Positions 16,540-62,381 of a stretch of DNA of 64,000 nt are shown here, one piece after another. Under the pieces are notes generated by a model. The model was not told where the DNA came from, searched no databases, and saw nothing but the letters and a program-made list of their open reading frames with translations. A program made the translations under genes and the position numbers. The DNA comes from a virus. Lineage: Duplodnaviria; Heunggongvirae; Uroviricota; Caudoviricetes. The stretch lies in IMG/VR virus record IMGVR_UViG_3300021399_000141. One strand, written 5' to 3'. Position 1 is the stretch's first letter, and each line of letters opens with the position of its first letter.

Positions 16540-16742
16540 AACCTCTCCAACCACTCCCTTCGTGACATAGGTCAATATCCAAGGGCTGTTACTATCCTAG
16601 AGACCAATTCAAGCAACCGATATGTGAATAGTTGGATTTGTATTGAAACTTCTCCAGCTATACCCTTCGTGACATGGGTCAATATCCAAGGGCTGTTACT
16701 ATCCTAGAGACCAATTCAAGTAACCGGTGAGTGAATAGTTGG
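16540..16742. repeat. two tandem copies of an approximately 100-bp repeat
   Basis: copies 16540-16644 and 16646-16742 about 90 percent identical; each ends in gtgaatagttgg, also found at the adjacent tRNA-like gene. Confidence 0.7.
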
Positions 16743-16797
16743 GCTCGAACCAACGACATACCTTCTTTGGTGCTCTACCATCTGAGCTATATTCACT
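16731..16797 (-). ncRNA. tRNA-like gene lacking a canonical anticodon arm
   Basis: perfect acceptor GTGAATA/TATTCAC, D-arm GCTC-AGATGGTA-GAGC, T-arm GTTGG-TTCGAGC-CCAAC, but only 17 nt between D and T arms. Confidence 0.4.
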
Positions 16798-17636: not shown

Positions 17637-18487
17637 ATGTCATCTGCCTGAGAACTTAGGCTTTGGTGATATCATTGCGATAGGGTTGGACCTATCTGTT
17701 CACACTCTGTATTTCTACAGCGTAGATACCATGCACATCAGTTTTGAAAAACTGCCAAACTCTTACTCAACATCGTCGTAAATTTCCTTTCTGTACCACC
17801 TACTTGCGGATTCGAAGGGTGCCCCCTCCTCGGTCGATACTTACTTGTACTCTTTTGTGATTTTCCTTGCGAGAATCTCACATCCTCGTATTGCAGAGGA
17901 ACAAGTGCATTTTAGATGTCAAGTGTCGCACACTTTTGCTGACCTATATTAAACTTTACTGATTCATTATCGTTGTCAGTAGTAGGGATCGAACCTACAG
18001 TCTAGTAACCATTTTTAAGAGATGTGGTGCGACCCAACGCATTCGTACCTTTTGGATACGACCCACGTAAACACCTCTCTGTCCTTCGTGCTTCCTACAG
18101 CACTATTAACTGTCCGTTTCGTTCAAATCATTTCTGATGTTAAACTAGTCCTTCCGTGCAGCAGCAATTGATTAGGAGTTCTTTCACCGCTACCAACTTA
18201 AACCTTTATTGGGTTTTTATCCCTCAAGTCAGGAGTTTCACCCGACTCACTCGTACTTCAGTCTCACCATTTGGCATTGACGCTGATCCCTTTTGCGGAT
18301 TCTCCCATACGAGTGATGTTCTAGTTCTTTTCCGTGGACAGGTTCTTTTATCAACCTGCGCTCTAACTGTGTTACTGGGTTAGGGCTTTATAGTATTACT
18401 ACTTTATCCTTAACAGCTCCGAAAGCGAACTGGAGACCTTCCGCGGACACTTCCGCTAGTCTAACAAGGTGGTTTATTTCCTTGTTC

Positions 18488-19407: not shown

Positions 19408-20325
19408 TTAGTAATCTGAATTTGCTACCTGACAAGTCAAGAGACCTAGTTCTCTCCACATCGACACACATTTGTTGCTGTCTTCGAAGACACATAGCAC
19501 GTTGTACTTGTCTTGTATCTGTTGTTCGTACATTTTGCGTTTGTATACTTCTCCTGAAGAGAAATCTCTCTGACTGCGAGTAATCAGCTCCCATCTGTTG
19601 TTCAGACCCTGTTTTGGGTCTTGTAACCATTTCAAGGTATCCCGTTGTGCACATTTGTTGCGACCAGTCAAGAAGAATACCTTGGTACCATTCGCCATGT
19701 GGAAGTTCAACAGATCACGCAAACGGGGATCGATCTTGTCCGTCAATAGTCTACCCCATTCGAACGGCTCTCGCCCCTGATGTAATGCCAACGTAGCATC
19801 TAGATCACAGATGATACAGAGCGGAAGGGTGGGTTCTGGTTGTCTGATGACTCTCTTGTCTGTGAGCTCGTCCCGGTACCTCTCATGATAGAACGTATCG
19901 TAGAACTTGGCAATAACATCTCGAGGAATGTATTCTTTGGCGCGAACTCCAATCTCTTTGTTGCGTTTGTAACTTTCAGCGTACGGAACATATAATTGCT
20001 TGATCACCAATTCCGCGCCTGTTTCGTTTGCGAGCTTTTCGAACTCCTGAATACGCCGTGGATTGATGTTGTAGGCATCGACAATGATGTCCCAGCTCAG
20101 ATGTGGATATCTGTTGAATTTATCCAGGATAGTTTGACGCTCGGTCTCTAGAACAGAGCCCAGGGTATTTATAATATAACCCTTATCCGTGGATTCCCAA
20201 CTCAGGTCTCTGGTGCTGATCATATGTACACAGATATCCGTAGGTGCCTCGTTCCAGTGTTTCCTTGCCCAAGTCGTCTTACCACTTCTGGGCGGGCCTT
20301 GTAATAGAATGATTTGTCTTTTCAT
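19408..20325 (-). CDS. pnk: polynucleotide 5-prime-kinase/3-prime-phosphatase (Pnkp-like)
   Basis: N-terminal Walker A GPPRSGKTTWA; C-terminal HAD motif I ICDLDATL (DxDxT) as in T4 Pnk phosphatase domain. Confidence 0.65.
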   Translation of the reverse strand: MKRQIILLQGPPRSGKTTWARKHWNEAPTDICVHMISTRDLSWESTDKGYIINTLGSVLETERQTILDKFNRYPHLSWDIIVDAYNINPRRIQEFEKLANETGAELVIKQLYVPYAESYKRNKEIGVRAKEYIPRDVIAKFYDTFYHERYRDELTDKRVIRQPEPTLPLCIICDLDATLALHQGREPFEWGRLLTDKIDPRLRDLLNFHMANGTKVFFLTGRNKCAQRDTLKWLQDPKQGLNNRWELITRSQRDFSSGEVYKRKMYEQQIQDKYNVLCVFEDSNKCVSMWRELGLLTCQVANSDY

Positions 20326-20756
20326 TGTTTTAGTTGGTTTTGGTATATCAACGCCAATATTTTGTTTTGATATTCGACTTTGAAGATCTGTTCTACAAAG
20401 TCTGCGAGATCGTTTGCTGCATTGATGACCTCTTGCGTCCCATAGGAATGATGATATTCCCAGGCGCGATCTACAATTTGAACGCAGCTTCCGTAACTCA
20501 AATCCTCATGATTAGAACATATCGTTGCCGCCAAATTGTCTCTGAACTTGCCTTCCTCTTGATGACGTTTGTTACGTTCTTGCAGTATAATGCGCTCTTC
20601 GGCTTGTCTGATCGCTTCGGCTACTTTGGCTTCTTCTTTACGATGTGCTTCGCGAATAGCATGTAACTCATCCAGATCGTGGATGTCGTTCAATTTTGAA
20701 ATGTCGTTATTTTGCATTTTTCTTATAGTTTTCAAGTAAACGAATGATGTCTTCAC
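20322..20756 (-). CDS. hypothetical protein
   Basis: ORF track 144 aa. Confidence 0.45.
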   Translation of the reverse strand: MKTSFVYLKTIRKMQNNDISKLNDIHDLDELHAIREAHRKEEAKVAEAIRQAEERIILQERNKRHQEEGKFRDNLAATICSNHEDLSYGSCVQIVDRAWEYHHSYGTQEVINAANDLADFVEQIFKVEYQNKILALIYQNQLKQ

Positions 20757-21066
20757 GTCCCACTGGATTAGATGAATGAGATGTGAACTCAGGAAGAGGG
20801 TTACCTGTCTCTATGCACATATCCACCAGATACTTAGCACAGTCATATCCTGTAGGACCAAGTCCGAGATCGTGATCGAAACAAACGAGATCAGGCCATG
20901 TCTCAAGAATAAGATGTTGGATAAACTCGTTCTTGCTTTTGACCCAGCTTACTACGCACTCGTTCAAAGGGACATCTAGGAACTCTTCCGCTGCGTAAGC
21001 AAGATAATCTTTCCACTCGGGGACGTTAGGGTCCCTCATGTCATCTATCCAAAGAATATGCTTCAT
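20707..21066 (-). CDS. hypothetical protein
   Basis: ORF track 119 aa. Confidence 0.45.
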   Translation of the reverse strand: MKHILWIDDMRDPNVPEWKDYLAYAAEEFLDVPLNECVVSWVKSKNEFIQHLILETWPDLVCFDHDLGLGPTGYDCAKYLVDMCIETGNPLPEFTSHSSNPVGREDIIRLLENYKKNAK

Positions 21067-21118: not shown

Positions 21119-21139
21119 ATGAAAAAATAATGAGAAATG

Positions 21140-21213
21140 TGGCTCCGCTGGGACTCTAACCCAGGACCAACAGTTTAGAAGACTGCCGCTCTATACAACT
21201 GAGCTACGGAGTC
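21140..21213 (-). tRNA. tRNA-Arg (TCT)
   Basis: anticodon loop CTTCTAA; one acceptor mismatch. Confidence 0.6.
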
Positions 21214-21216
21214 TTG

Positions 21217-21609
21217 TCAGACAACCAGCCTATAGATATCATTCCACTCCAGTTCATCGTCTTCTATTGCGCTGATAGGTGTCTCACATCTATTAAGGAC
21301 GAATCCCATTCGTTGGTACCATTCTGCACAGAACTTTTCTGAATAATCATTAACTGCTATCTCAACAATACATTGCTCGATGGCATTCAGTTGTGCGTGT
21401 GCACGACACTCCTTAATAGCGCTTTCAATCATCAAAGTACCTAGTCCATGCTTTCGTAATGCAGGATTGACGTACAAATCAGACAACAGATAGGCTTCAT
21501 CACTAACGTATTTGGTGATTCGAATCATGGCGCCACCTGTACTCTCCATGATATAGATGCTTTCAGCATCTTTCCATTTTTGACAATGTGTTATCGTTTT
21601 GAAATTCAT
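21217..21609 (-). CDS. GNAT-family N-acetyltransferase embedded in the tRNA array
   Basis: motif LYVNPALRKHGLGTLMIESAIKEC (GNAT motif A-like); ORF-track N-terminal extension overlaps tRNA-His so start set at MNFKTITH. Confidence 0.55.
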   Translation of the reverse strand: MNFKTITHCQKWKDAESIYIMESTGGAMIRITKYVSDEAYLLSDLYVNPALRKHGLGTLMIESAIKECRAHAQLNAIEQCIVEIAVNDYSEKFCAEWYQRMGFVLNRCETPISAIEDDELEWNDIYRLVV

Positions 21610-21631
21610 ATTGAGAATAGTTTTGATGTGG

Positions 21632-21706
21632 GTGACCTGTGGGATTCGAACCCACGAAATACCAGAACCACAATCTGGCGCAATAGGCCTCTCTGCCAAA
21701 GCCACC
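21632..21706 (-). tRNA. tRNA-His (GTG)
   Basis: anticodon loop TTGTGGT; extra 5-prime G(-1) opposite discriminator C. Confidence 0.7.
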
Positions 21707-21781
21707 ATAAAAAGGAACACTGATTAACTGGTTCAATGTCCGAAACCTCGATAGGACTCGTACCATAGGTAAAAGCCTCTG

Positions 21782-21935: not shown

Positions 21936-22294
21936 AAAAAAGATACCGAGCAAAGGTATAAAAGTTCGCCGAAGTGCTCTGAGACGTATACCATTGAATA
22001 GACTAATATACGACAGCTATCTGGTTGCACTTGTCCAGTTTGCGTTGTTGAGAGGCTGTTAAGTTTGTGGGCTAGGCCACGCTTTTGAGCATCAAGTTCT
22101 CGTTTTGTTGACTTCGGGCTATGTTCCTTGCGTCTCCCAGTGAGTGCTGCTCTGGTAACAATTCGATATTCCATGTGCTCTCTTTCAAGCAGATTAGCGA
22201 AGTGTTTGAAGTTCTATTCTTCAATCCTTACAAACTACCTGGATATCTATGAACTTACCCTTTTCTTGCGGTATCAATATATGTCAAAGATCTG

Positions 22295-22871: not shown

Positions 22872-23156
22872 CTACGCCATTTTGTTATGTGTTTGTATAA
22901 GTTCTCTATCATTAGGAAAATGTTTTAAGTATCTTGTCACCATGTCCTCGTTCTCAATGACATATGTTTTGAAGAACTCTTTTTTAGATTCTTCCCACAT
23001 TTCTACGCGTAGTCTTAAAGCAGGCTTGAAAGTTTCTTCTTTGTGATTCTCACAAGTCTCCGTAGGAAGGAGTATCTTCCATTCATCTTTATGAAGACAA
23101 CATGGATCACCGTCCCATATCTTGAAATATTTGCAATATAGACAAATGTTTTCCAT
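22872..23156 (-). CDS. small Cys-rich (zinc-finger-like) protein
   Basis: ORF track 94 aa, CxxC...CC...C..H pattern. Confidence 0.4.
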   Translation of the reverse strand: MENICLYCKYFKIWDGDPCCLHKDEWKILLPTETCENHKEETFKPALRLRVEMWEESKKEFFKTYVIENEDMVTRYLKHFPNDRELIQTHNKMA

Positions 23157-24509: not shown

Positions 24510-24833
24510 TCATTCAATAACGACCTCGTACTGTGTTCTGGTGATTTTGCGATTCGACTGAATAAGATAGTCGCCTCGTCTTACATTTACTTCAAATGAA
24601 CTCCGCGCGGTCTTGACAGGTCTACCGTGTTTCAAATCATAGACATAGGTGATTTGCATAGGATTGTTTGAGATAATATCAATCCTGACTACATCCCTGA
24701 ATATGACCGTCTGTTCATTTACTACTTCTACTCGTGGATCTTGAGTCCATCCTGAATTGGTTTTCTGCACAGAACATGCATTCAATCCAAGCACTATGAA
24801 CAAGACTGCGAGTGCGTTGATAATTTTTTTCAT
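24510..24833 (-). CDS. putative lipoprotein
   Basis: MKKIINALAVLFIVLGLNACS lipobox; ORF-track N-terminal extension overlaps tRNA-Leu and is discarded. Confidence 0.5.
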   Translation of the reverse strand: MKKIINALAVLFIVLGLNACSVQKTNSGWTQDPRVEVVNEQTVIFRDVVRIDIISNNPMQITYVYDLKHGRPVKTARSSFEVNVRRGDYLIQSNRKITRTQYEVVIE

Positions 24834-24858
24834 ATTTTTATATTCTTGATAATTTGTG

Positions 24859-24938
24859 TACCCAGAGCGGGACTCGAACCCGCACCCTTTCGGACCTGAT
24901 TTTGAGTCAGGCGCGTCTACCGATTCCGCCATCTGGGC
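24859..24938 (-). tRNA. tRNA-Leu (CAA)
   Basis: type II; loop CTCAAAA. Confidence 0.7.
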
Positions 24939-26761: not shown

Positions 26762-26768
26762 TTCATTG

Positions 26769-26841
26769 CCGTCTTTCGAGGGCTCGAACCTCGCATCTAC
26801 TGGTAGAATCCAGCGCTTCGTCCATGCAAAGCTTAAAGACG
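26769..26841 (-). tRNA. tRNA, anticodon unresolved (6-nt loop ATTCTA)
   Basis: perfect acceptor CGTCTTT/AAAGACG and T-arm CGAGG-TTCGAGC-CCTCG; anticodon stem CTGG/CCAG closes a 6-nt loop. Confidence 0.4.
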
Positions 26842-27052: not shown

Positions 27053-27125
27053 CGGAGTTGACGGGAGTCGAACCCGTTCCGAACTGCGTGACAGGCAGAC
27101 ATCTTAGCCGTTTGACCTCAACTCC
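27053..27125 (-). tRNA. tRNA-Asp (GTC), second copy
   Basis: perfect acceptor GGAGTTG/CAACTCC; loop CTGTCAC. Confidence 0.55.
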
Positions 27126-30504: not shown

Positions 30505-32007
30505 TTACTTACTTTCTACCTTGGCTCCGGCAGAGATCACTTTGGAGTTCTCCTCCATAATCTTTCCGAGGTTTACACCGGTGGCCTGTTCCATTACGTC
30601 CATCGACTGTTTTACCAGTACCGGAACGTTGCCTGAGATACCTGATACCTCGTTACCGTTCGTACCATAGACGTGAACATCCTTGATAGACTTGAGTGGT
30701 TCAGCAACTGATGCAGCGACCTCAGGAAGTTTATCAACAACCATCTGTGCGAGAGCGGCGTGTCCGTACTCTTTGTACGCTTCGGCTTTCTTGTACATCG
30801 CTTTGGCTTCAGCCTCTCCTTTGGCTAGGATAGCAGCGGCTTCTGCCTCACCGACCGCCTTGATACCTGCTGCCTCTTGTTGACGTGCATAGAGATCTGC
30901 TTCTGCCTTGGCTTTAACAGCGAGTGCTTTCTGCTCTGCTTCGTAACGCTCGGCTTCTGCCTGACGTTTGCGTTGCTCCAATTCAGCAGCGGCATTGACC
31001 TCTTTCTGGTACTTCTCCGCATCGGCTTGTTTGTTGACTTGTGCAGCCAATGTCTTCTCCTGGATAGCAATCTCCTGCTCCTTCAAAAGCTGTTCTTGTT
31101 TGGCCTTCTCAACCTTTGCCTCGACTTCAAGTTTGTTGATTTCCTTCTGGCGCTCGTTAATACGAATCGTCTTGGCGGCCTGAGCCTCAACAGTCTTGAT
31201 ATTGATCTCACGAGCCTGTTCTTGCTCCTGGATCTTGTAAGCGGCGTCTGCCATAGCCTTTTGAGTATCTGCTTGGCGCTTCAGTTCCGCTTGCTTGACA
31301 GCTAGCTCCGTGTTGCGTTGTGCAATCTCCGTCTCGGATGCTACTCGAGCATCGTTAGCCTCTTTCTTTGCCTTTGCCTCAGCGATAGCGACATCACGCT
31401 CTGCGTTAGCTTTGTTGATAGAGGCGTTCTTCTTGATCATATAGGTGTTGTCTGCACCTAGGTCTTGAATAAGCCCTTTCTCGTCGGTGATGTTCTGGAT
31501 GTTGCAGGTAAGAATGTGGAGGCCCAACTGTTGCATATCCTTCTCAGCCTTGTTGCGGATCTGATCGGAGAATCCATCTCGGTCTAGGTTCAACTGTTTG
31601 AGCTCCTGTGTACCAACAATCTCACGCATGTTACCTTCTAGGGACTCTTGAATGTTTCGTGCAATGTCTGATGGATTGAAATTCAAGAAGTTCTTTGCTG
31701 CTGTTGCAATGAGTTCTTGATCGACACAAATCTTTGCCACTGCATCGACATTCACGTTGATGAAGTCCTTCGTAGGAATAGAAGAGGCCTTGATATCCAC
31801 AGAGAACTGTCCTAGATACAAACCATCCACCTTTTGCAAGCCTGGAATACGAAGACCACCAGTACCTTTAAGGAACTTGGGTGTTTTCAGCGGCCAACCG
31901 GAAATTACCAATGCCATGTTAGGACTCGCCTTTACATACGAAAGACACAGAATCAGAATGAGGAGTGCCAAAACCGCGCCTCCGATAATAAGTGAAATGT
32001 TTACCAT
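30505..32007 (-). CDS. SPFH/band-7 (flotillin or YqiK-like) membrane protein
   Basis: N-terminal TM helix, SPFH-like region, then a roughly 250-aa Ala/Glu/Lys/Gln-rich coiled coil; antisense plus-strand ORFs here are low-complexity artefacts. Confidence 0.55.
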   Translation of the reverse strand: MVNISLIIGGAVLALLILILCLSYVKASPNMALVISGWPLKTPKFLKGTGGLRIPGLQKVDGLYLGQFSVDIKASSIPTKDFINVNVDAVAKICVDQELIATAAKNFLNFNPSDIARNIQESLEGNMREIVGTQELKQLNLDRDGFSDQIRNKAEKDMQQLGLHILTCNIQNITDEKGLIQDLGADNTYMIKKNASINKANAERDVAIAEAKAKKEANDARVASETEIAQRNTELAVKQAELKRQADTQKAMADAAYKIQEQEQAREINIKTVEAQAAKTIRINERQKEINKLEVEAKVEKAKQEQLLKEQEIAIQEKTLAAQVNKQADAEKYQKEVNAAAELEQRKRQAEAERYEAEQKALAVKAKAEADLYARQQEAAGIKAVGEAEAAAILAKGEAEAKAMYKKAEAYKEYGHAALAQMVVDKLPEVAASVAEPLKSIKDVHVYGTNGNEVSGISGNVPVLVKQSMDVMEQATGVNLGKIMEENSKVISAGAKVESK

Positions 32008-33156: not shown

Positions 33157-34464
33157 CTAGACGTTACGTCCGTTTTCATAAATGAATTTGAGCACCGGGA
33201 AACGGAGCGAGTACTCGCCTGTTTTGGAGTCTTTCGTCTCCTCAAAGTACTGCACAGTAATGGTTTTGCCTATGATCTCTTCTGGGTGATCGTACCAGCG
33301 GAGTCGTTGTTCTTTGGACAGTCCGCTACCTACTTGTACCTGATTACCTTTATGCTCGATCAACAGAGCCCGGCACGCATCGAACTCCTTATGACCATCT
33401 TCGTTATAGGTGACTTTAGAGTTCAAGGTACCCACTACCACGTATTCTGCATCCTTGAACTTCTTGACCTTCAAGAGATCTTTGGTACGTCCACGTTGAT
33501 AAGGAACGTCTTTGCGCAACATGAATCCCTCCCAGTGCCCCTCTGCTACGTATCCGGACCAGCGATCGAAGTCCTCTTGACACATCAGGCGTTCTTGTTC
33601 GAGCACCCTGATGCGGTCACTAGGATGTTGTGCATATAGACTTTGGAGCGCAGTCAATCTTATCACAAACCGCGGCGACTCTTGTTTCATGTCGAACTCG
33701 TCTTGAGTCAACAGGTCAAAGACATTGTAGCAAGGATGCTCGATCGTATGATTCTTACGGGTGATCTCTTTCATTACCCAATCGAAGTGCTCGTCTCCGT
33801 TCTCATCGAGGATGCATACCTCCCCATCCAGGACCCACTTGCCTAAGTAAGGAGACATCATTTCCCGTACAGGTTCCTTAAGATTGTCCAGAGTAGTGAA
33901 CACCTTGTTCTGGCGGCTGCGAAACTCTACTTCTTGATGGAGGAGACCTGTCTTGTCATACCAGTTATTGATGAATGCCACACAGCGCACCCCATCTAAC
34001 TTACGAGACGCGAAATAGGTACCATCTACAGGATCAACACCCTTCGTGTCTGCGAGCTGTTCTGCAAGAGACACCTCATAGACATCAAAGATCGGCGCGA
34101 TCTTTTGGAAGTTGTCACGTGATACACCGATCTTCAGGTTGTGTGCTAGTACGTTGAGCAAGATCTTCTGATCATCTTCCTGGAAGCGCTCGAGCTCCAT
34201 CTGCAATGCGAGACGGGCTTCGTTACCGGTGAGGTGATGACACTCACACTGCCAAAGGACTTGTTTGTAGTCAGCCCATCCTTCTTCGATCGTGAGATCA
34301 CCGACCGTCTCGACATCTACCTTGGTCACGTAGAACTTGTGTCCTCCGTAAGCCTGTTCGAAGATATCCTTCATTAGGTCTGACATGTTGTACGTTAGAA
34401 TGAGAAGTTTCTCATTGGTCTTTGCTGTGTCTTTTACTGTTTTAAAAAGTTGCGCTATTGTCAT
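33157..34464 (-). CDS. ATP-dependent DNA (or RNA) ligase
   Basis: nucleotidyltransferase motif I KLDGVR (KxDG); DGEVCIL motif downstream. Confidence 0.6.
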   Translation of the reverse strand: MTIAQLFKTVKDTAKTNEKLLILTYNMSDLMKDIFEQAYGGHKFYVTKVDVETVGDLTIEEGWADYKQVLWQCECHHLTGNEARLALQMELERFQEDDQKILLNVLAHNLKIGVSRDNFQKIAPIFDVYEVSLAEQLADTKGVDPVDGTYFASRKLDGVRCVAFINNWYDKTGLLHQEVEFRSRQNKVFTTLDNLKEPVREMMSPYLGKWVLDGEVCILDENGDEHFDWVMKEITRKNHTIEHPCYNVFDLLTQDEFDMKQESPRFVIRLTALQSLYAQHPSDRIRVLEQERLMCQEDFDRWSGYVAEGHWEGFMLRKDVPYQRGRTKDLLKVKKFKDAEYVVVGTLNSKVTYNEDGHKEFDACRALLIEHKGNQVQVGSGLSKEQRLRWYDHPEEIIGKTITVQYFEETKDSKTGEYSLRFPVLKFIYENGRNV

Positions 34465-43133: not shown

Positions 43134-43946
43134 CTACAAAATTCTTTTACCAATCGTTATTTTCTTGGCAACAACTTTAGAATCCCAGCGTCTTTCATTA
43201 CATACTCCTTCAAGCTCAACTTCGCGAATCACCATGTCTCCTCCAAATGTCCCGTCATAATAACTAAATACGTCTGCAAGATTTAAACAAGCATGAAAGC
43301 CACAATGACATAATATAGGTTCACCATCGAACTCGTATGTTTTACCTTCTTCATATTGAAAGCCTCGGCATGTCATATCAGGATAAAACCCTTTATACGC
43401 TTTACATTTACCGTCTCTAATAACCTGGTTTGCGTAGGTTTTGCCCCTAAAGATTATAGAAGCCAAATTGCCACAGCCTTCGAATGCACACCATCCTATG
43501 CGGATGACACTGTCAGGAATCTCAATAGACGTCAAACCTATGCAATCTTTAAAAGCATCACTTTCAATGCTTGTAACCCTATTTGGAATAGTTAAAGATT
43601 TCAAACCGATGCATCCTCGAAAAGCACTACCACTAATGCAAGTGATACTATTCGGAATTTTTATCGTGGTCAAACCGGTGCAATGACCGAAAACTCCGGT
43701 CCCAATGCTTGTGACACTGTCTGGGATCGTTATAGAGGTCAAACCTGTACAATAGCTGAAAACCCAGCATCCAATGCTTGTGATACTGTCTGGGATCGTT
43801 ATAGAGGTCAAACCACTACAGCCACAGAAAGCGCGGTTTCCAAAAGCTGTATATCCTTTGAGCATATCAGCAGTGATAACAGATACTTCATCAAAACCAA
43901 GTATTTCAACTTGTTCTCTTGTTAAAACTTTTTCTTCCATATTCAT
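43134..43946 (-). CDS. BspA-type leucine-rich-repeat protein
   Basis: tandem about 23-aa repeats ITIPDSVTSIG..F..C.GLTS. Confidence 0.55.
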   Translation of the reverse strand: MNMEEKVLTREQVEILGFDEVSVITADMLKGYTAFGNRAFCGCSGLTSITIPDSITSIGCWVFSYCTGLTSITIPDSVTSIGTGVFGHCTGLTTIKIPNSITCISGSAFRGCIGLKSLTIPNRVTSIESDAFKDCIGLTSIEIPDSVIRIGWCAFEGCGNLASIIFRGKTYANQVIRDGKCKAYKGFYPDMTCRGFQYEEGKTYEFDGEPILCHCGFHACLNLADVFSYYDGTFGGDMVIREVELEGVCNERRWDSKVVAKKITIGKRIL

Positions 43947-59023: not shown

Positions 59024-60259
59024 TTATTCGGCTGGGGCTTCAGGTTCAGCTGTATCATTACAGTAATCATAGATAGTTTCACCTTCTGATGGATAATCAT
59101 TATCGACTAAATAATCCTCTGCAGATTCTCCTGCGAACGAATCATAAGCATTTGAACTATAGTATCCATTATAACCTTGTTCATTATATGTTTCATTTGG
59201 ATTTAGACTTACATATGTAGGATCTTCTGCTTCGTGTTCGATTGTGACTGTTACTTCTGGGTTATAACTATCATTGCAGTAATCATAGATAGTTGCACCA
59301 GCCTCTGGATATTTGTCATCAACTAAGTAATCATCAGCAGTTTCACCAGCCTCGGAATTATACATATCACTTTCATAGTATCCATTATAACCTTGTTCAC
59401 TATATGTTTCATTTGGATTTAATGATACTGTTTCAGAAGGTCCATCTTCATGTTCAATCGTAACATCCGCACCGGGTTCTTTCAACCACATATTTAAAGT
59501 CACATCAGTACCATCTGCTAATGTAATTGTAAACACTTCTTCTTTGTTATAATCATATGTTTGACCACCAACAACAGTTATTGTTTGCAAACTGCCAGGA
59601 TAAGCTGGTTCACCTGTCACATCATTGCCAACGAAGAAAGCACTATTTGCAATGCCTGTAACCCCACTACCAATAATCACAGATGTCAAACTGACGCAAT
59701 CAAAGAAAGCACCATATCCAATGCTTGTAACACTATTCGGGATCGTTATAGATGTCAAACCGACACAATTAAAGAAAGCGACTGCTCCGATTCGTGTAAC
59801 TGTTTTTGGTAAAACAATATTTTTTACATTGCATGTTAACCCTATTTTTGGATATATTATAAAAAATGGACCATCAGCGATCATTGTTTCTGCGTCATTA
59901 TCACCCAATATAGTCACGTCACCATCAAATGTCATGCACCACATCTGTTTTTCTTCATCAAACTTGTTAGAAACCACAGCCGGACCATTATATGTACCTC
60001 CCATGCTAATTATCCCTTCTATAATTCCACCAAAATCATAGATTTCACCATCAGTTGTGGTGTACCAAATCTCATTGGATGCCGGCCCCACAGGTTCAGG
60101 ACCTGGATTATATATTTCTTGATAAGCACCGAGTTGATGGATATGATCTTTAATGATCTGATCATCTAAGGATAATGTGCCTGCAACGAGTTGCTGTGCC
60201 AAACTCGAGTCTGTTAGGTACTTGTTATTTAGTACGTCATCAATAGACATGTTAGCCAT
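59024..60259 (-). CDS. BspA-type LRR protein with C-terminal repeated about 60-aa modules (tail-fiber or adhesin candidate)
   Basis: LRR units TSITIPNSVTSIG; two C-terminal modules ending DYLVD..YP..G.TIYDYCND; N-terminal 45 aa identical to next gene. Confidence 0.55.
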   Translation of the reverse strand: MANMSIDDVLNNKYLTDSSLAQQLVAGTLSLDDQIIKDHIHQLGAYQEIYNPGPEPVGPASNEIWYTTTDGEIYDFGGIIEGIISMGGTYNGPAVVSNKFDEEKQMWCMTFDGDVTILGDNDAETMIADGPFFIIYPKIGLTCNVKNIVLPKTVTRIGAVAFFNCVGLTSITIPNSVTSIGYGAFFDCVSLTSVIIGSGVTGIANSAFFVGNDVTGEPAYPGSLQTITVVGGQTYDYNKEEVFTITLADGTDVTLNMWLKEPGADVTIEHEDGPSETVSLNPNETYSEQGYNGYYESDMYNSEAGETADDYLVDDKYPEAGATIYDYCNDSYNPEVTVTIEHEAEDPTYVSLNPNETYNEQGYNGYYSSNAYDSFAGESAEDYLVDNDYPSEGETIYDYCNDTAEPEAPAE

Positions 60260-60296
60260 ATTCGTGTATTATGTATTTTTCTTAATTTGATTGAAA

Positions 60297-62381
60297 TTAT
60301 TCTGCTGGTTCTTCTGGCTCGGGCTCTTCAGGATCTGGTTCAGCTATATCATTACAGTAGTCATAAATGGTATCGCCTTCTGATGGATGTGTATCATTAA
60401 CTAAGTAATCATCAGCAGATTCATCGGTCTCGGAATTATAAGTATTTTGACTGTAGTATCCTGTATAACCATTGTCAGCATATGTTATCTCTGAATTTAG
60501 ACTTACATATGTAGGATCTTCTGCTTCGTGTTCGATTGTGACTGTTACTTCTGGGTTATAACTATTATTACAGTAATCATAGATAGTGTCGCCTGATTGA
60601 GGAGAATTATTATCAACTAAGAAATCATCAGCAGATTCGCCTGCATCCGAATTATAAGTATCTTGACTATAGTATCTTTCATATCCTTGTTCACCATATG
60701 TTTGGTTAGCATCTAATGATACTGTTTCCGGGTCTGCATCTTTATGTTCAATCGTAATCTTTACGTAAGTTGGATCTGGATCTAAAGCCGTATCATCAGC
60801 TAACACATACATATAATCAGGATCTAATGATTCATCCACATCAACAAGTGCAATATGATCAGGATCTACAAATTCATAATCTGTTGCTTTTACGATTGAT
60901 ATAGAGTGCCCAGATTCAGCATGATGGGCAACAGGCATTGTTACCCCCTGGAACTCTTGAGTTATAACAGTAAATCCGTAGGTAGATAATCCAGGAACGT
61001 CTTTTGTACCATTGACTAAAGTTGAAATAAATTCTCCAGCCGTCATAGGATGTTCATCTATTTTAACAGATCCGACGACATATAGAAAATGTGGTAAATG
61101 TTCTTTTCCGATTAGATCCACAAACCAGGATGCTTCTGCTAAAAGCGACGGAAATATCATGTTTGAATTATAAATCTCAACAACTGTACCATCAAAACAT
61201 TGATACTCACCTATACCAGTTCCGTCGAGCCAACCTTTGTCGATTCTAGCGCATTCTTTTTGTGTGCCCTCGTAATATACTTCATTAACACCGGATAGGG
61301 CACCCATTCCTATAGACGAAACACCGTTTGGTAAAGTTAATGTTAATGATGGTTTACGCTCTATAACTGCTTCAAATGTGTTATCAAACCAGCTTTGTTC
61401 AAGTGTTGTCAAATCATCGCTAAATGTAACTATTCCTTCGCCCTGTTTGTCATTAAATGTATGTTCGACATAATTTACTCCCTCTTTTATGGTTAACTGT
61501 TCAGGGGCAGTATATCGTATCTGGTTGTTATTTAACAGCGCTTCGATCCTATCTGCATATTCAGACCAAAATTCCTTATACGCATCAACCGAATCAGCAG
61601 GTACCATTATTAGACAGTCACTACCACTGAAGACGTCATTTCCTATGACTGGGGGATTTGGTGCTTTGCAGATAATAGGGTCTAAACCTTCACAGCCACC
61701 GAAAACATTGTCTCCGATGAATGTAACCCTGTCACCAATTATTGCGGATTTCAAACCGGTACAACCACCGAAAGCACGATCTCCAATACTTGTGACGCTA
61801 TCAGGAATCGTTATTGAGGTCAAACCGGTGCAACTCCAGAAAGCATGATTTCCAATACTGGTGACGCTGTTAGGAATCGTGATAGAGTTTAGACTACTGC
61901 AACCTCCGAAAGTCAAATCGCCAATTCGTGTAACCGTTTTTGGCAAAACAATAGTTTCTACATTGCAAGTTATGCTCATGTCTTTGTTTGTTCCAAAAAA
62001 TGGACCGTCAGCAGTAAATGCAACTAGATCAATATCACCCAATACTGTCACATCTTCATCGAATGTCAGGCACCACATTTGTTTTTCCTCATCAAACTCA
62101 TTAGAAACTACAGCAGGACCATTGTATGCGCCTCCCATACCAGTCAGCATTTCTATAATTCCAGCCAAATCATACATTTCACCATCTGATGTGGTGTACC
62201 AGATTTCTTTGCCAGAATCATCACCCGATCCATAAATTTCGATATATGCGCCGAGTTGATGGATGTGATCTTTAATGATCTGATCATCTAGGGATAGTGT
62301 GCCTGCAACGAGTTGCTGTGCTAAACTCGAGTCTGTTAGGTACTTGTTATTTAGTACGTCATCAATAGACATTTTTGCCAT
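60297..62381 (-). CDS. BspA-type LRR protein, larger paralog
   Basis: same N-terminus MAKMSIDDVLNNKYLTDSSLAQQLVAGTLSLDDQIIKDHIHQLGAY; LRR units; same C-terminal modules. Confidence 0.55.
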   Translation of the reverse strand: MAKMSIDDVLNNKYLTDSSLAQQLVAGTLSLDDQIIKDHIHQLGAYIEIYGSGDDSGKEIWYTTSDGEMYDLAGIIEMLTGMGGAYNGPAVVSNEFDEEKQMWCLTFDEDVTVLGDIDLVAFTADGPFFGTNKDMSITCNVETIVLPKTVTRIGDLTFGGCSSLNSITIPNSVTSIGNHAFWSCTGLTSITIPDSVTSIGDRAFGGCTGLKSAIIGDRVTFIGDNVFGGCEGLDPIICKAPNPPVIGNDVFSGSDCLIMVPADSVDAYKEFWSEYADRIEALLNNNQIRYTAPEQLTIKEGVNYVEHTFNDKQGEGIVTFSDDLTTLEQSWFDNTFEAVIERKPSLTLTLPNGVSSIGMGALSGVNEVYYEGTQKECARIDKGWLDGTGIGEYQCFDGTVVEIYNSNMIFPSLLAEASWFVDLIGKEHLPHFLYVVGSVKIDEHPMTAGEFISTLVNGTKDVPGLSTYGFTVITQEFQGVTMPVAHHAESGHSISIVKATDYEFVDPDHIALVDVDESLDPDYMYVLADDTALDPDPTYVKITIEHKDADPETVSLDANQTYGEQGYERYYSQDTYNSDAGESADDFLVDNNSPQSGDTIYDYCNNSYNPEVTVTIEHEAEDPTYVSLNSEITYADNGYTGYYSQNTYNSETDESADDYLVNDTHPSEGDTIYDYCNDIAEPDPEEPEPEEPAE

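Follow-up and report, generated by a model that had tools for sequence, protein, structure and literature searches.

N-acetyltransferases of the GNAT superfamily have been tied to tRNA and to phages in several ways. The type II toxins TacT, AtaT, ItaT and KacT acetylate aminoacyl-tRNA, and the toxin family is defined by an adjoining gene for a DUF1778 (RHH) or DUF4065 antitoxin (PMC9177977). Some phage GNATs modify host proteins: Rac, from phiKMV-like phages, acetylates the alpha subunit of RNA polymerase, and the anti-CRISPR protein AcrVA5 acetylates Cas12a (PMC7824862). Mom, FemX, L/F-transferase and MprF, which use aminoacyl-tRNA as donor, have a GNAT-related fold and a tie to tRNA, and Mom is phage-encoded (PMC13219725). 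Unrelated genes also occur in phage tRNA clusters, for example segB of T4 (PMC2330249). Here we analysed 64,000 nucleotides of an uncultured rumen phage of the Caudoviricetes (IMG/VR record IMGVR_UViG_3300021399_000141; the window), in which a short GNAT gene lies at positions 21217-21609 on the minus strand, between genes for tRNA-Arg and tRNA-His. The protein belongs to a very well known kind of enzyme, of which it is a variant in both structure and context. It is probably a functional, stripped-down, acetyl-CoA-dependent N-acetyltransferase of a phage "mini-GNAT" clade that is co-expressed with tRNAs, and not a toxin of the TacT/AtaT/ItaT type. All positions are window positions; L001 and similar labels denote related loci, P0011 and similar labels homologous proteins.

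The coding sequence comprises 130 codons (MNFKT...RLVV) followed by a TGA stop (21217-21219). ARAGORN predicted 36 tRNA genes in the window, arranged in two blocks and all on the minus strand, which is also the strand of the GNAT gene. Directly upstream lies tRNA-His(gtg) (21630-21705, minus strand; Rfam tRNA score 49.2 bits), and the GNAT ATG is found 20 nt past its 3' end. The 5' end of tRNA-Arg(tct) (21139-21213, minus strand; 61.5 bits) follows 3 nt past the stop codon. These ARAGORN calls confirmed the placement between the two tRNA genes that an earlier note on this DNA had proposed. The longest mechanical open reading frame (ORF) begins with a GTG at 21720, would encode 167 aa and runs across tRNA-His, while the first ATG past this tRNA, at 21609, gives the 130-aa product. 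Because the ten nearest database matches (71-98% identity) all have 127-132 aa and start with MNF or MDF, we take the ATG at 21609 as the true start, which agrees with the internal MNFKT start preferred in the earlier note over that of the ORF track. Comparison with the 84%-identical orthologue of L001 gave a nonsynonymous rate (dN) of 0.095 and a synonymous rate (dS) of 0.62. The resulting dN/dS of 0.15, together with conserved motifs, indicates that the ORF is more than a chance reading frame and that the gene is genuine.

The GNAT identity, too, was borne out. Pfam scores exceeded the gathering cut-offs of Acetyltransf_7 (34.7 versus 27), Acetyltransf_1 (32.1 versus 20.7) and Acetyltransf_10 (24.1 versus 23.6). 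Motif A, the loop that binds the pyrophosphate of acetyl-CoA (Q/R-x-x-G-x-G/A), reads R52-K53-H54-G55-L56-G57 (codons 21439-21456, minus strand) and lies between beta4 and alpha3, and its role in cofactor binding is well established for GNATs. Among 22 family members with identities down to 26%, R52 was invariant and both G55 and G57 were at least 90% conserved. Tyr98 (codon 21316-21318, minus strand) lies in helix alpha4 within W-Y-x-x-x-G-F and was the sole residue invariant across all 60 aligned family members; by analogy with GNAT chemistry, it is the likely general acid. Because the cofactor loop and Tyr98 are conserved, the enzyme looks catalytically competent when judged by established GNAT chemistry.

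An AlphaFold model computed with 60 family members reached a predicted local distance difference test (pLDDT) score of 94.5 and a predicted template modelling (pTM) score of 0.86. With 11 close sequences the model was weak (pLDDT 70) and Foldseek E-values were meaningless, so the 60-sequence alignment was used. In this model, strands 5-11, 15-22, 27-34 and 39-47 are followed by helix 56-74, which is opened by motif A, then by strand 81-86, helix 94-100 and strands 104-109 and 123-129. The GNAT core fold (beta2-4, alpha3, beta5, alpha4, beta6-7) is present. The N-terminal arm formed by alpha1-alpha2 is absent: strand 5-11 leads straight into strand 15-22, and the first helix begins at residue 56. 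According to the model, the protein is an arm-less mini-GNAT that still belongs inside the GNAT superfamily. It is acidic, with an isoelectric point (pI) of 4.9 and a net charge of -7, as are its closest relatives P0011-P0018 (pI 4.6-5.6, net charge -4 to -13).

Loss of alpha1-alpha2 might also mark a degenerate GNAT that serves as a binding protein or decoy, or one for which a partner supplies these helices in trans. Within the close subfamily, the beta-sheet residues H8, Q10, W12, Y19, E22, R30 and T32 match the cofactor motif in conservation, as such a role could imply. Family-wide, conservation peaks at motif A and the catalytic-type Tyr, which argues for retained acetyl-CoA chemistry, and no conserved partner gene was found beside the orthologues. 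We therefore regard a non-enzymatic function as highly improbable.

A profile search of 1.84 billion representative sequences returned 109 matches at E<=1e-3, 14 of them at E<=1e-10. Nearly all genuine family matches are 100-140 aa long, which makes the small size characteristic of the family rather than the result of truncation. Long repetitive proteins (P0020, P0021 and others) matched by the beta-hairpin part alone (residues ~13-40), repeatedly, and were set aside as spurious. Among 50,697 cultured phage records searched by megablast and tblastn with the locus and three family members, there was no match, and a GTDB scan of cellular genomes yielded distant generic GNATs only and no family member. 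The scans of IMG/VR, JGI metagenomes and GTDB added a single new informative locus, L016, which is a 171-kb phage contig. Six-frame analysis with the family hidden Markov model revealed no second member in the window. As far as these searches reach, the family is a clade of ~120-138-aa mini-GNATs, so far from uncultured phages only. Generic bacterial and eukaryotic GNATs such as 2i79, 8osp, PaiA (1tiq), RimI (5isv/2cnm), Naa50/Naa60 and streptothricin acetyltransferase (3pp9) are 30-50 residues longer, a difference due to the alpha1-alpha2 helices. Unlike them, the mini-GNAT is phage-only, resides in tRNA arrays and scores under every subfamily cut-off.

The earlier note had likened the protein to toxins of the TacT, AtaT and ItaT type. 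We took the sequences of TacT1, TacT2, TacT3, ItaT and AtaT from Supplementary Table 4 of PMC9177977 and scored them with the family profile, with the database size matched to that of our PDB search. The toxins scored 22.6, 16.1, 18.7, 11.3 and 9.4 bits, respectively, whereas ordinary GNATs reached 26-40 bits (2i79 39.7, PaiA 34.6, Naa50 32.9, a RimI-type protein 26.4). That is, the profile comparison did not favour the toxins over other GNAT subfamilies. Alignment to the toxins with hhalign (probability 96.7) was confined to 67 columns spanning beta4-beta6 and placed residues 38-115 onto toxin columns 85-152. This region is the generic acetyl-CoA core, in which motif A and the Tyr region can be aligned and Tyr98 coincides with the invariant Tyr140 of TacT1 in the profile-profile comparison. 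The N-terminal half of the toxins and their F-D-C-G motif (F19, G22) have no counterpart in the mini-GNAT.

Further properties separate the two groups within their common superfamily. The toxins measure 161-180 aa (full-length architecture was defined as 150-245 aa) and have pI values of 6.5-9.4, with four of five being basic, versus 130 aa and pI 4.9 for the mini-GNAT. No toxin structure was found among the top fold matches of the model. Neither DUF1778 nor DUF4065 was encoded beside the window gene or among the neighbours scanned at five of the other loci (from L012, L016, L032-L034, L036 and L037). We rejected membership in the toxin family on these grounds: no antitoxin neighbour, no N-terminal half, an acidic pI and profile scores under those of ordinary GNATs. 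Of the earlier interpretation, the acetyltransferase identity thus stands and the toxin type does not. The link to tRNA is biochemical for the toxins, but genomic only for the mini-GNAT.

This genomic link extends beyond the window. The order His-GNAT-Arg(tct) was kept in all close relatives (L001-L008). Orthologues with 36-44% identity were found in five further lineages of uncultured phages, all in co-oriented tRNA arrays. The orthologue of L016 (43% identical) has Arg(acg) upstream and Gln downstream, that of L032 Glu(ctc) upstream and His downstream. In L033, Glu(ctc) lies upstream, and an ORF and then His follow; in L034, Thr(tgt) lies upstream, and an ORF and then Gln follow. In L036, a tRNA array beginning with Ile starts ~600 nt downstream. 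We found no other protein gene common to the arrays of the window and of these lineages. Neither Pfam analysis of ten neighbours nor all-against-all BLAST revealed a conserved partner or antitoxin beside the orthologues, and the neighbours are not homologues of cREC, a protein encoded downstream of the GNAT gene in the window. L016 carries a second ORF in the same array (L016:7694-8125, 143 aa), directly upstream of tRNA-Val, in which a GNAT-like motif R-Q-K-G-I-A was recognised by eye.

More distant family members sit elsewhere. In the lineage of P0028 and P0120, similarity is mainly restricted to the N-terminal 67 residues and the recovered contigs are without tRNA genes. There (L010:2090-5918, L012:1302-5053), the mini-GNAT gene is clustered with genes for the peptidyl-tRNA hydrolase PTH2, a PF09414 RNA ligase, FolD and a 245-aa protein of unknown function. 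Homologues of the L010-lineage PTH2, RNA ligase and FolD were not found in the window. The PTH2 of this lineage is fused to a Phage_T4_Y00F domain, and a DUF488-N3a protein is encoded farther downstream. Other distant members were found in unrelated phage contexts.

The 20 nt that separate the 3' end of tRNA-His from the ATG (21610-21629, minus strand) form an A/U-rich leader without a Shine-Dalgarno sequence; L001, L005 and L008 have 20-23 nt at this place. No intrinsic terminator was found on the minus strand between 15000 and 30000. Since the leader leaves no room for a promoter and no such terminator was found in the region, the GNAT gene must be co-transcribed with tRNA-His. It would thus be part of a long minus-strand tRNA precursor, from which the RNase P cut at tRNA-Arg and the 3' processing of tRNA-His may free a message of ~420 nt with the 20-nt A/U-rich leader.

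The favoured functional model can be put as follows. A protein that retains beta1-4, alpha3, beta5, alpha4 and beta6-7 and dispenses with alpha1-alpha2 would bind acetyl-CoA via R52-x-x-G55-x-G57 and acetylate an amine, a reaction in which Tyr98 probably serves as general acid. The fixed address in tRNA arrays would most simply reflect expression at the same time as the tRNAs, within a region devoted to tRNAs and RNA repair in counter-defence. Tentatively, we propose that the acceptor is a basic host or phage protein, modified for host takeover or counter-defence. A protein acceptor is favoured because the enzyme is acidic, because of its best, though weak, matches to protein N-acetyltransferases and because Rac and AcrVA5 provide precedents. 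Both are phage-encoded GNATs that target the machinery or the defence of the host, and AcrVA5 shares the small size. No specific relationship to either in sequence or fold was detected: neither appeared in the top PDB or fold match lists, and no direct comparison with them was made. In contrast to the mini-GNAT, their genes have not been reported in tRNA arrays.

Several points weigh against this model. The RimI equivalog TIGR01575 scored 21.7 bits versus a cut-off of 86.4, and the AAC(3)-XI model NF000482 scored 20.7 bits versus a cut-off of 300, so that neither assigns the protein to a subfamily. The structural matches were GNATs of similar strength, none of which clearly stood out as the nearest. 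Because no curated subfamily cut-off was reached, the acceptor class is a guess. The promoter scan does not cover promoters of the Bacteroidota type, and that the message is processed where it borders the tRNAs is an inference, not an observation. Finally, orthologues at 36-44% identity occupy tRNA arrays in six lineages (the window clade, L016, L032, L033, L034 and L036) with different flanking tRNAs, and the distant P0028/P0120 lineage has PTH2, RNA ligase and FolD as neighbours.

The last two observations would fit an enzyme that acts on tRNA itself, be it on the alpha-amine of particular aminoacyl-tRNAs, in the manner of TacT/AtaT but from outside their family, on another tRNA amine or on a repair intermediate, with host shut-off or protection of phage tRNAs as the outcome. 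The GNAT is the only protein gene common to the arrays of the six lineages, genes for cREC and a polynucleotide kinase-phosphatase (PNKP) lie directly downstream in the window, and GNATs acting on tRNA are known (PMC13219725; PMC9177977). We nevertheless consider this explanation unlikely. The tRNA-acetylating toxins stay at 9.4-22.6 bits against 26-40 for ordinary GNATs, align over 67 core columns only and possess an N-terminal half with an F-D-C-G motif that the mini-GNAT lacks. The locus has no antitoxin-like and no conserved neighbour, the protein and its close relatives are clearly acidic, unlike the toxins, four of five of which are basic, and neither a TmcA-type helicase nor an RNA-binding module is present. 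Nor does the protein resemble the enzymes with an aminoacyl-tRNA donor. Mom, FemX, L/F-transferase and MprF are larger or domain-duplicated, while the mini-GNAT keeps the canonical acetyl-CoA loop, and is acidic rather than equipped with a positive nucleic-acid cleft. The Pfam families of these four enzymes gave no match to the mini-GNAT at E<=1.

Residence in an array can moreover be a matter of descent, if the gene stays in place while the tRNAs around it are shuffled. Unrelated genes do sit in phage tRNA clusters, and two other ORFs share that of the window. T4 segB (PMC2330249) is likewise a protein gene among co-oriented phage tRNA genes, but encodes a homing endonuclease without an enzymatic link to tRNA, whereas the mini-GNAT is an acetyltransferase retained in arrays at 36-44% identity. 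The tRNA-array context is thus a genuine lead to translation or tRNA biology, yet one that descent could also explain: the gene may be an old resident of a plastic region.

A small-molecule acceptor would turn the gene into an auxiliary metabolic or resistance gene that sits in a plastic tRNA region by chance. Polyamines, aminoglycosides, streptothricin-like antibiotics, amino acids and nucleotide-derived signals would be candidates. The top PDB sequence match was indeed AAC(3)-XI (E 0.0023), with the alignment to 9mgt spanning only residues 29-73 around motif A. Profile and fold matches included the spermidine acetyltransferase PaiA, streptothricin and nourseothricin acetyltransferases, OrfE, a putative D-alanine N-acetyltransferase and the tabtoxin resistance protein. 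All these matches lie far under the subfamily cut-offs, and protein acetyltransferases are interspersed among them. In GNATs, the pocket for a small-molecule acceptor is normally closed off by the alpha1-alpha2 helices. Judging from the model topology, the site is likely wide open without them, and a phage-only family would be unusual for a metabolic or resistance enzyme. We hence find a small-molecule acceptor doubtful. In two further searches, PADLOC-DB gave 0 families at E<=1, and PHROGs weak generic "acetyltransferase" families only (E ~0.006).

The mini-GNAT is at present best described as a well-supported phage accessory enzyme, and as a lead rather than a discovery. If the acceptor is tRNA or a protein of translation or defence, the mini-GNAT would be a new enzymatic tool in the contest between phages and tRNA-targeting defence, and would stand beside phage tRNA arrays and cREC/PNKP repair genes. 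More speculatively, and with little expectation that it will hold, phage-only minimal GNATs could be kept in tRNA arrays by acting on the tRNA pool, through N-acetylation of particular aminoacyl-tRNAs or through end modification during repair of the cREC/PNKP type, from a message that RNase P and 3' processing cut out of the tRNA precursor. This would represent a second, independent origin of tRNA-directed GNAT activity, viral rather than of the toxin-antitoxin kind, and a bacterial-virus version of tRNA punctuation. Whatever its acceptor, a natural compact GNAT core of ~120-130 aa that lacks the alpha1-alpha2 arm lends itself to studies of how this arm influences the choice of acceptor.

The GNAT gene was described earlier as the only protein gene fully embedded in the second tRNA cluster, which is wrong, as at least two further conserved ORFs lie there. 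One encodes a lipoprotein-like protein of 107 aa (MKKIINALAVLFIVLGLNAC...; 24510-24833, minus strand) that is conserved in related contigs. Compared over the longer mechanical ORF 24510-24932, its translation is 81-90% identical to the matches in L001 and L005. The other (22872-23156, minus strand) encodes a Cys-rich protein of 94 aa without a Pfam family, 83% identical to its match in L005.

Downstream of tRNA-Arg, a 119-aa cREC (cyclic-phosphate-processing receiver) protein is encoded (20707-21066, minus strand; PF20274, E 8.4e-19). In L001, L005 and L008 this gene is kept after the GNAT and tRNA-Arg genes. It is followed by a gene for a 131-aa protein of unknown function without a Pfam match (20322-20717, minus strand), which has a homologue in L005 and L008, whereas L001 has no called gene between cREC and PNKP. 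The latter, a T4-type PNKP for RNA end-healing, lies at 19408-20325 (minus strand; HAD_PNKP E 2e-32, AAA_33 E 1.6e-8). The three genes (19408-21066, minus strand) form a putative compact RNA end-healing module between the tRNA blocks. The combination of cREC and PNKP has been tied to the repair of RNA ends in a comparison of jumbo phages (PMC7824862). The scanned ORFs of the window revealed no RNA ligase; a DNA-ligase-type protein is encoded at 33157-34464.

Two non-coding stretches were observed near the arrays. Between tRNA cluster 1 and the PNKP module, directly after tRNA-Thr(tgt), positions 17645-18079 (minus strand) matched the full length of the Rfam GOLLD model RF02032 (1-416 of 416) with 104.5 bits (E 4.9e-27), under the gathering score of 150. 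The stretch probably encodes a large phage RNA that is GOLLD-like but divergent. Between tRNA-Leu(gag) and tRNA-Arg(acg), a stretch of 175 nt (21955-22129, minus strand) shows 92.6% DNA identity to L033:233-407, despite the GNATs of the two phages being only 38% identical. As a structured RNA it found no support (no Rfam match, minimum free energy z-score 0.37); a mobile element, a regulatory element and the product of a recent transfer are all conceivable.

Among the tRNA genes themselves, Rfam added two tRNA-like genes missed by ARAGORN (27053-27125 and 16730-16796, both minus strand; 52.5 and 45.9 bits). ARAGORN also reported an odd tRNA with a two-base "anticodon" (26768-26841, minus strand). 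Repeated genes in the array include four copies of tRNA-Met(cat) and two each of tRNA-Arg(acg) and tRNA-Ala(tgc).

The nearest relatives of the window are rumen and gut metagenome contigs, including two of 197,476 and 197,528 bp. The window encodes a T4-type portal, the anaerobic ribonucleotide reductase NrdD, ThyX, an amidase and BspA-type leucine-rich-repeat proteins. At 31-41% identity, the portal matches the portal proteins of uncultured huge phages, Sphingomonas phage PAU, Tenacibaculum phages and Prevotella Lak phages. From these features we infer a large phage of an anaerobe with a portal of the T4 type. Its host is possibly a member of the Bacteroidota, which the A/U-rich leader without a Shine-Dalgarno sequence fits. 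In the direction of transcription, a gene for an SPFH/flotillin-like protein of 500 aa (30505-32007, minus strand) comes shortly before the tRNA region. The BspA-type proteins are several (43134-43946 and 59024-62381, minus strand), and one of them contains a DUF7666 domain.
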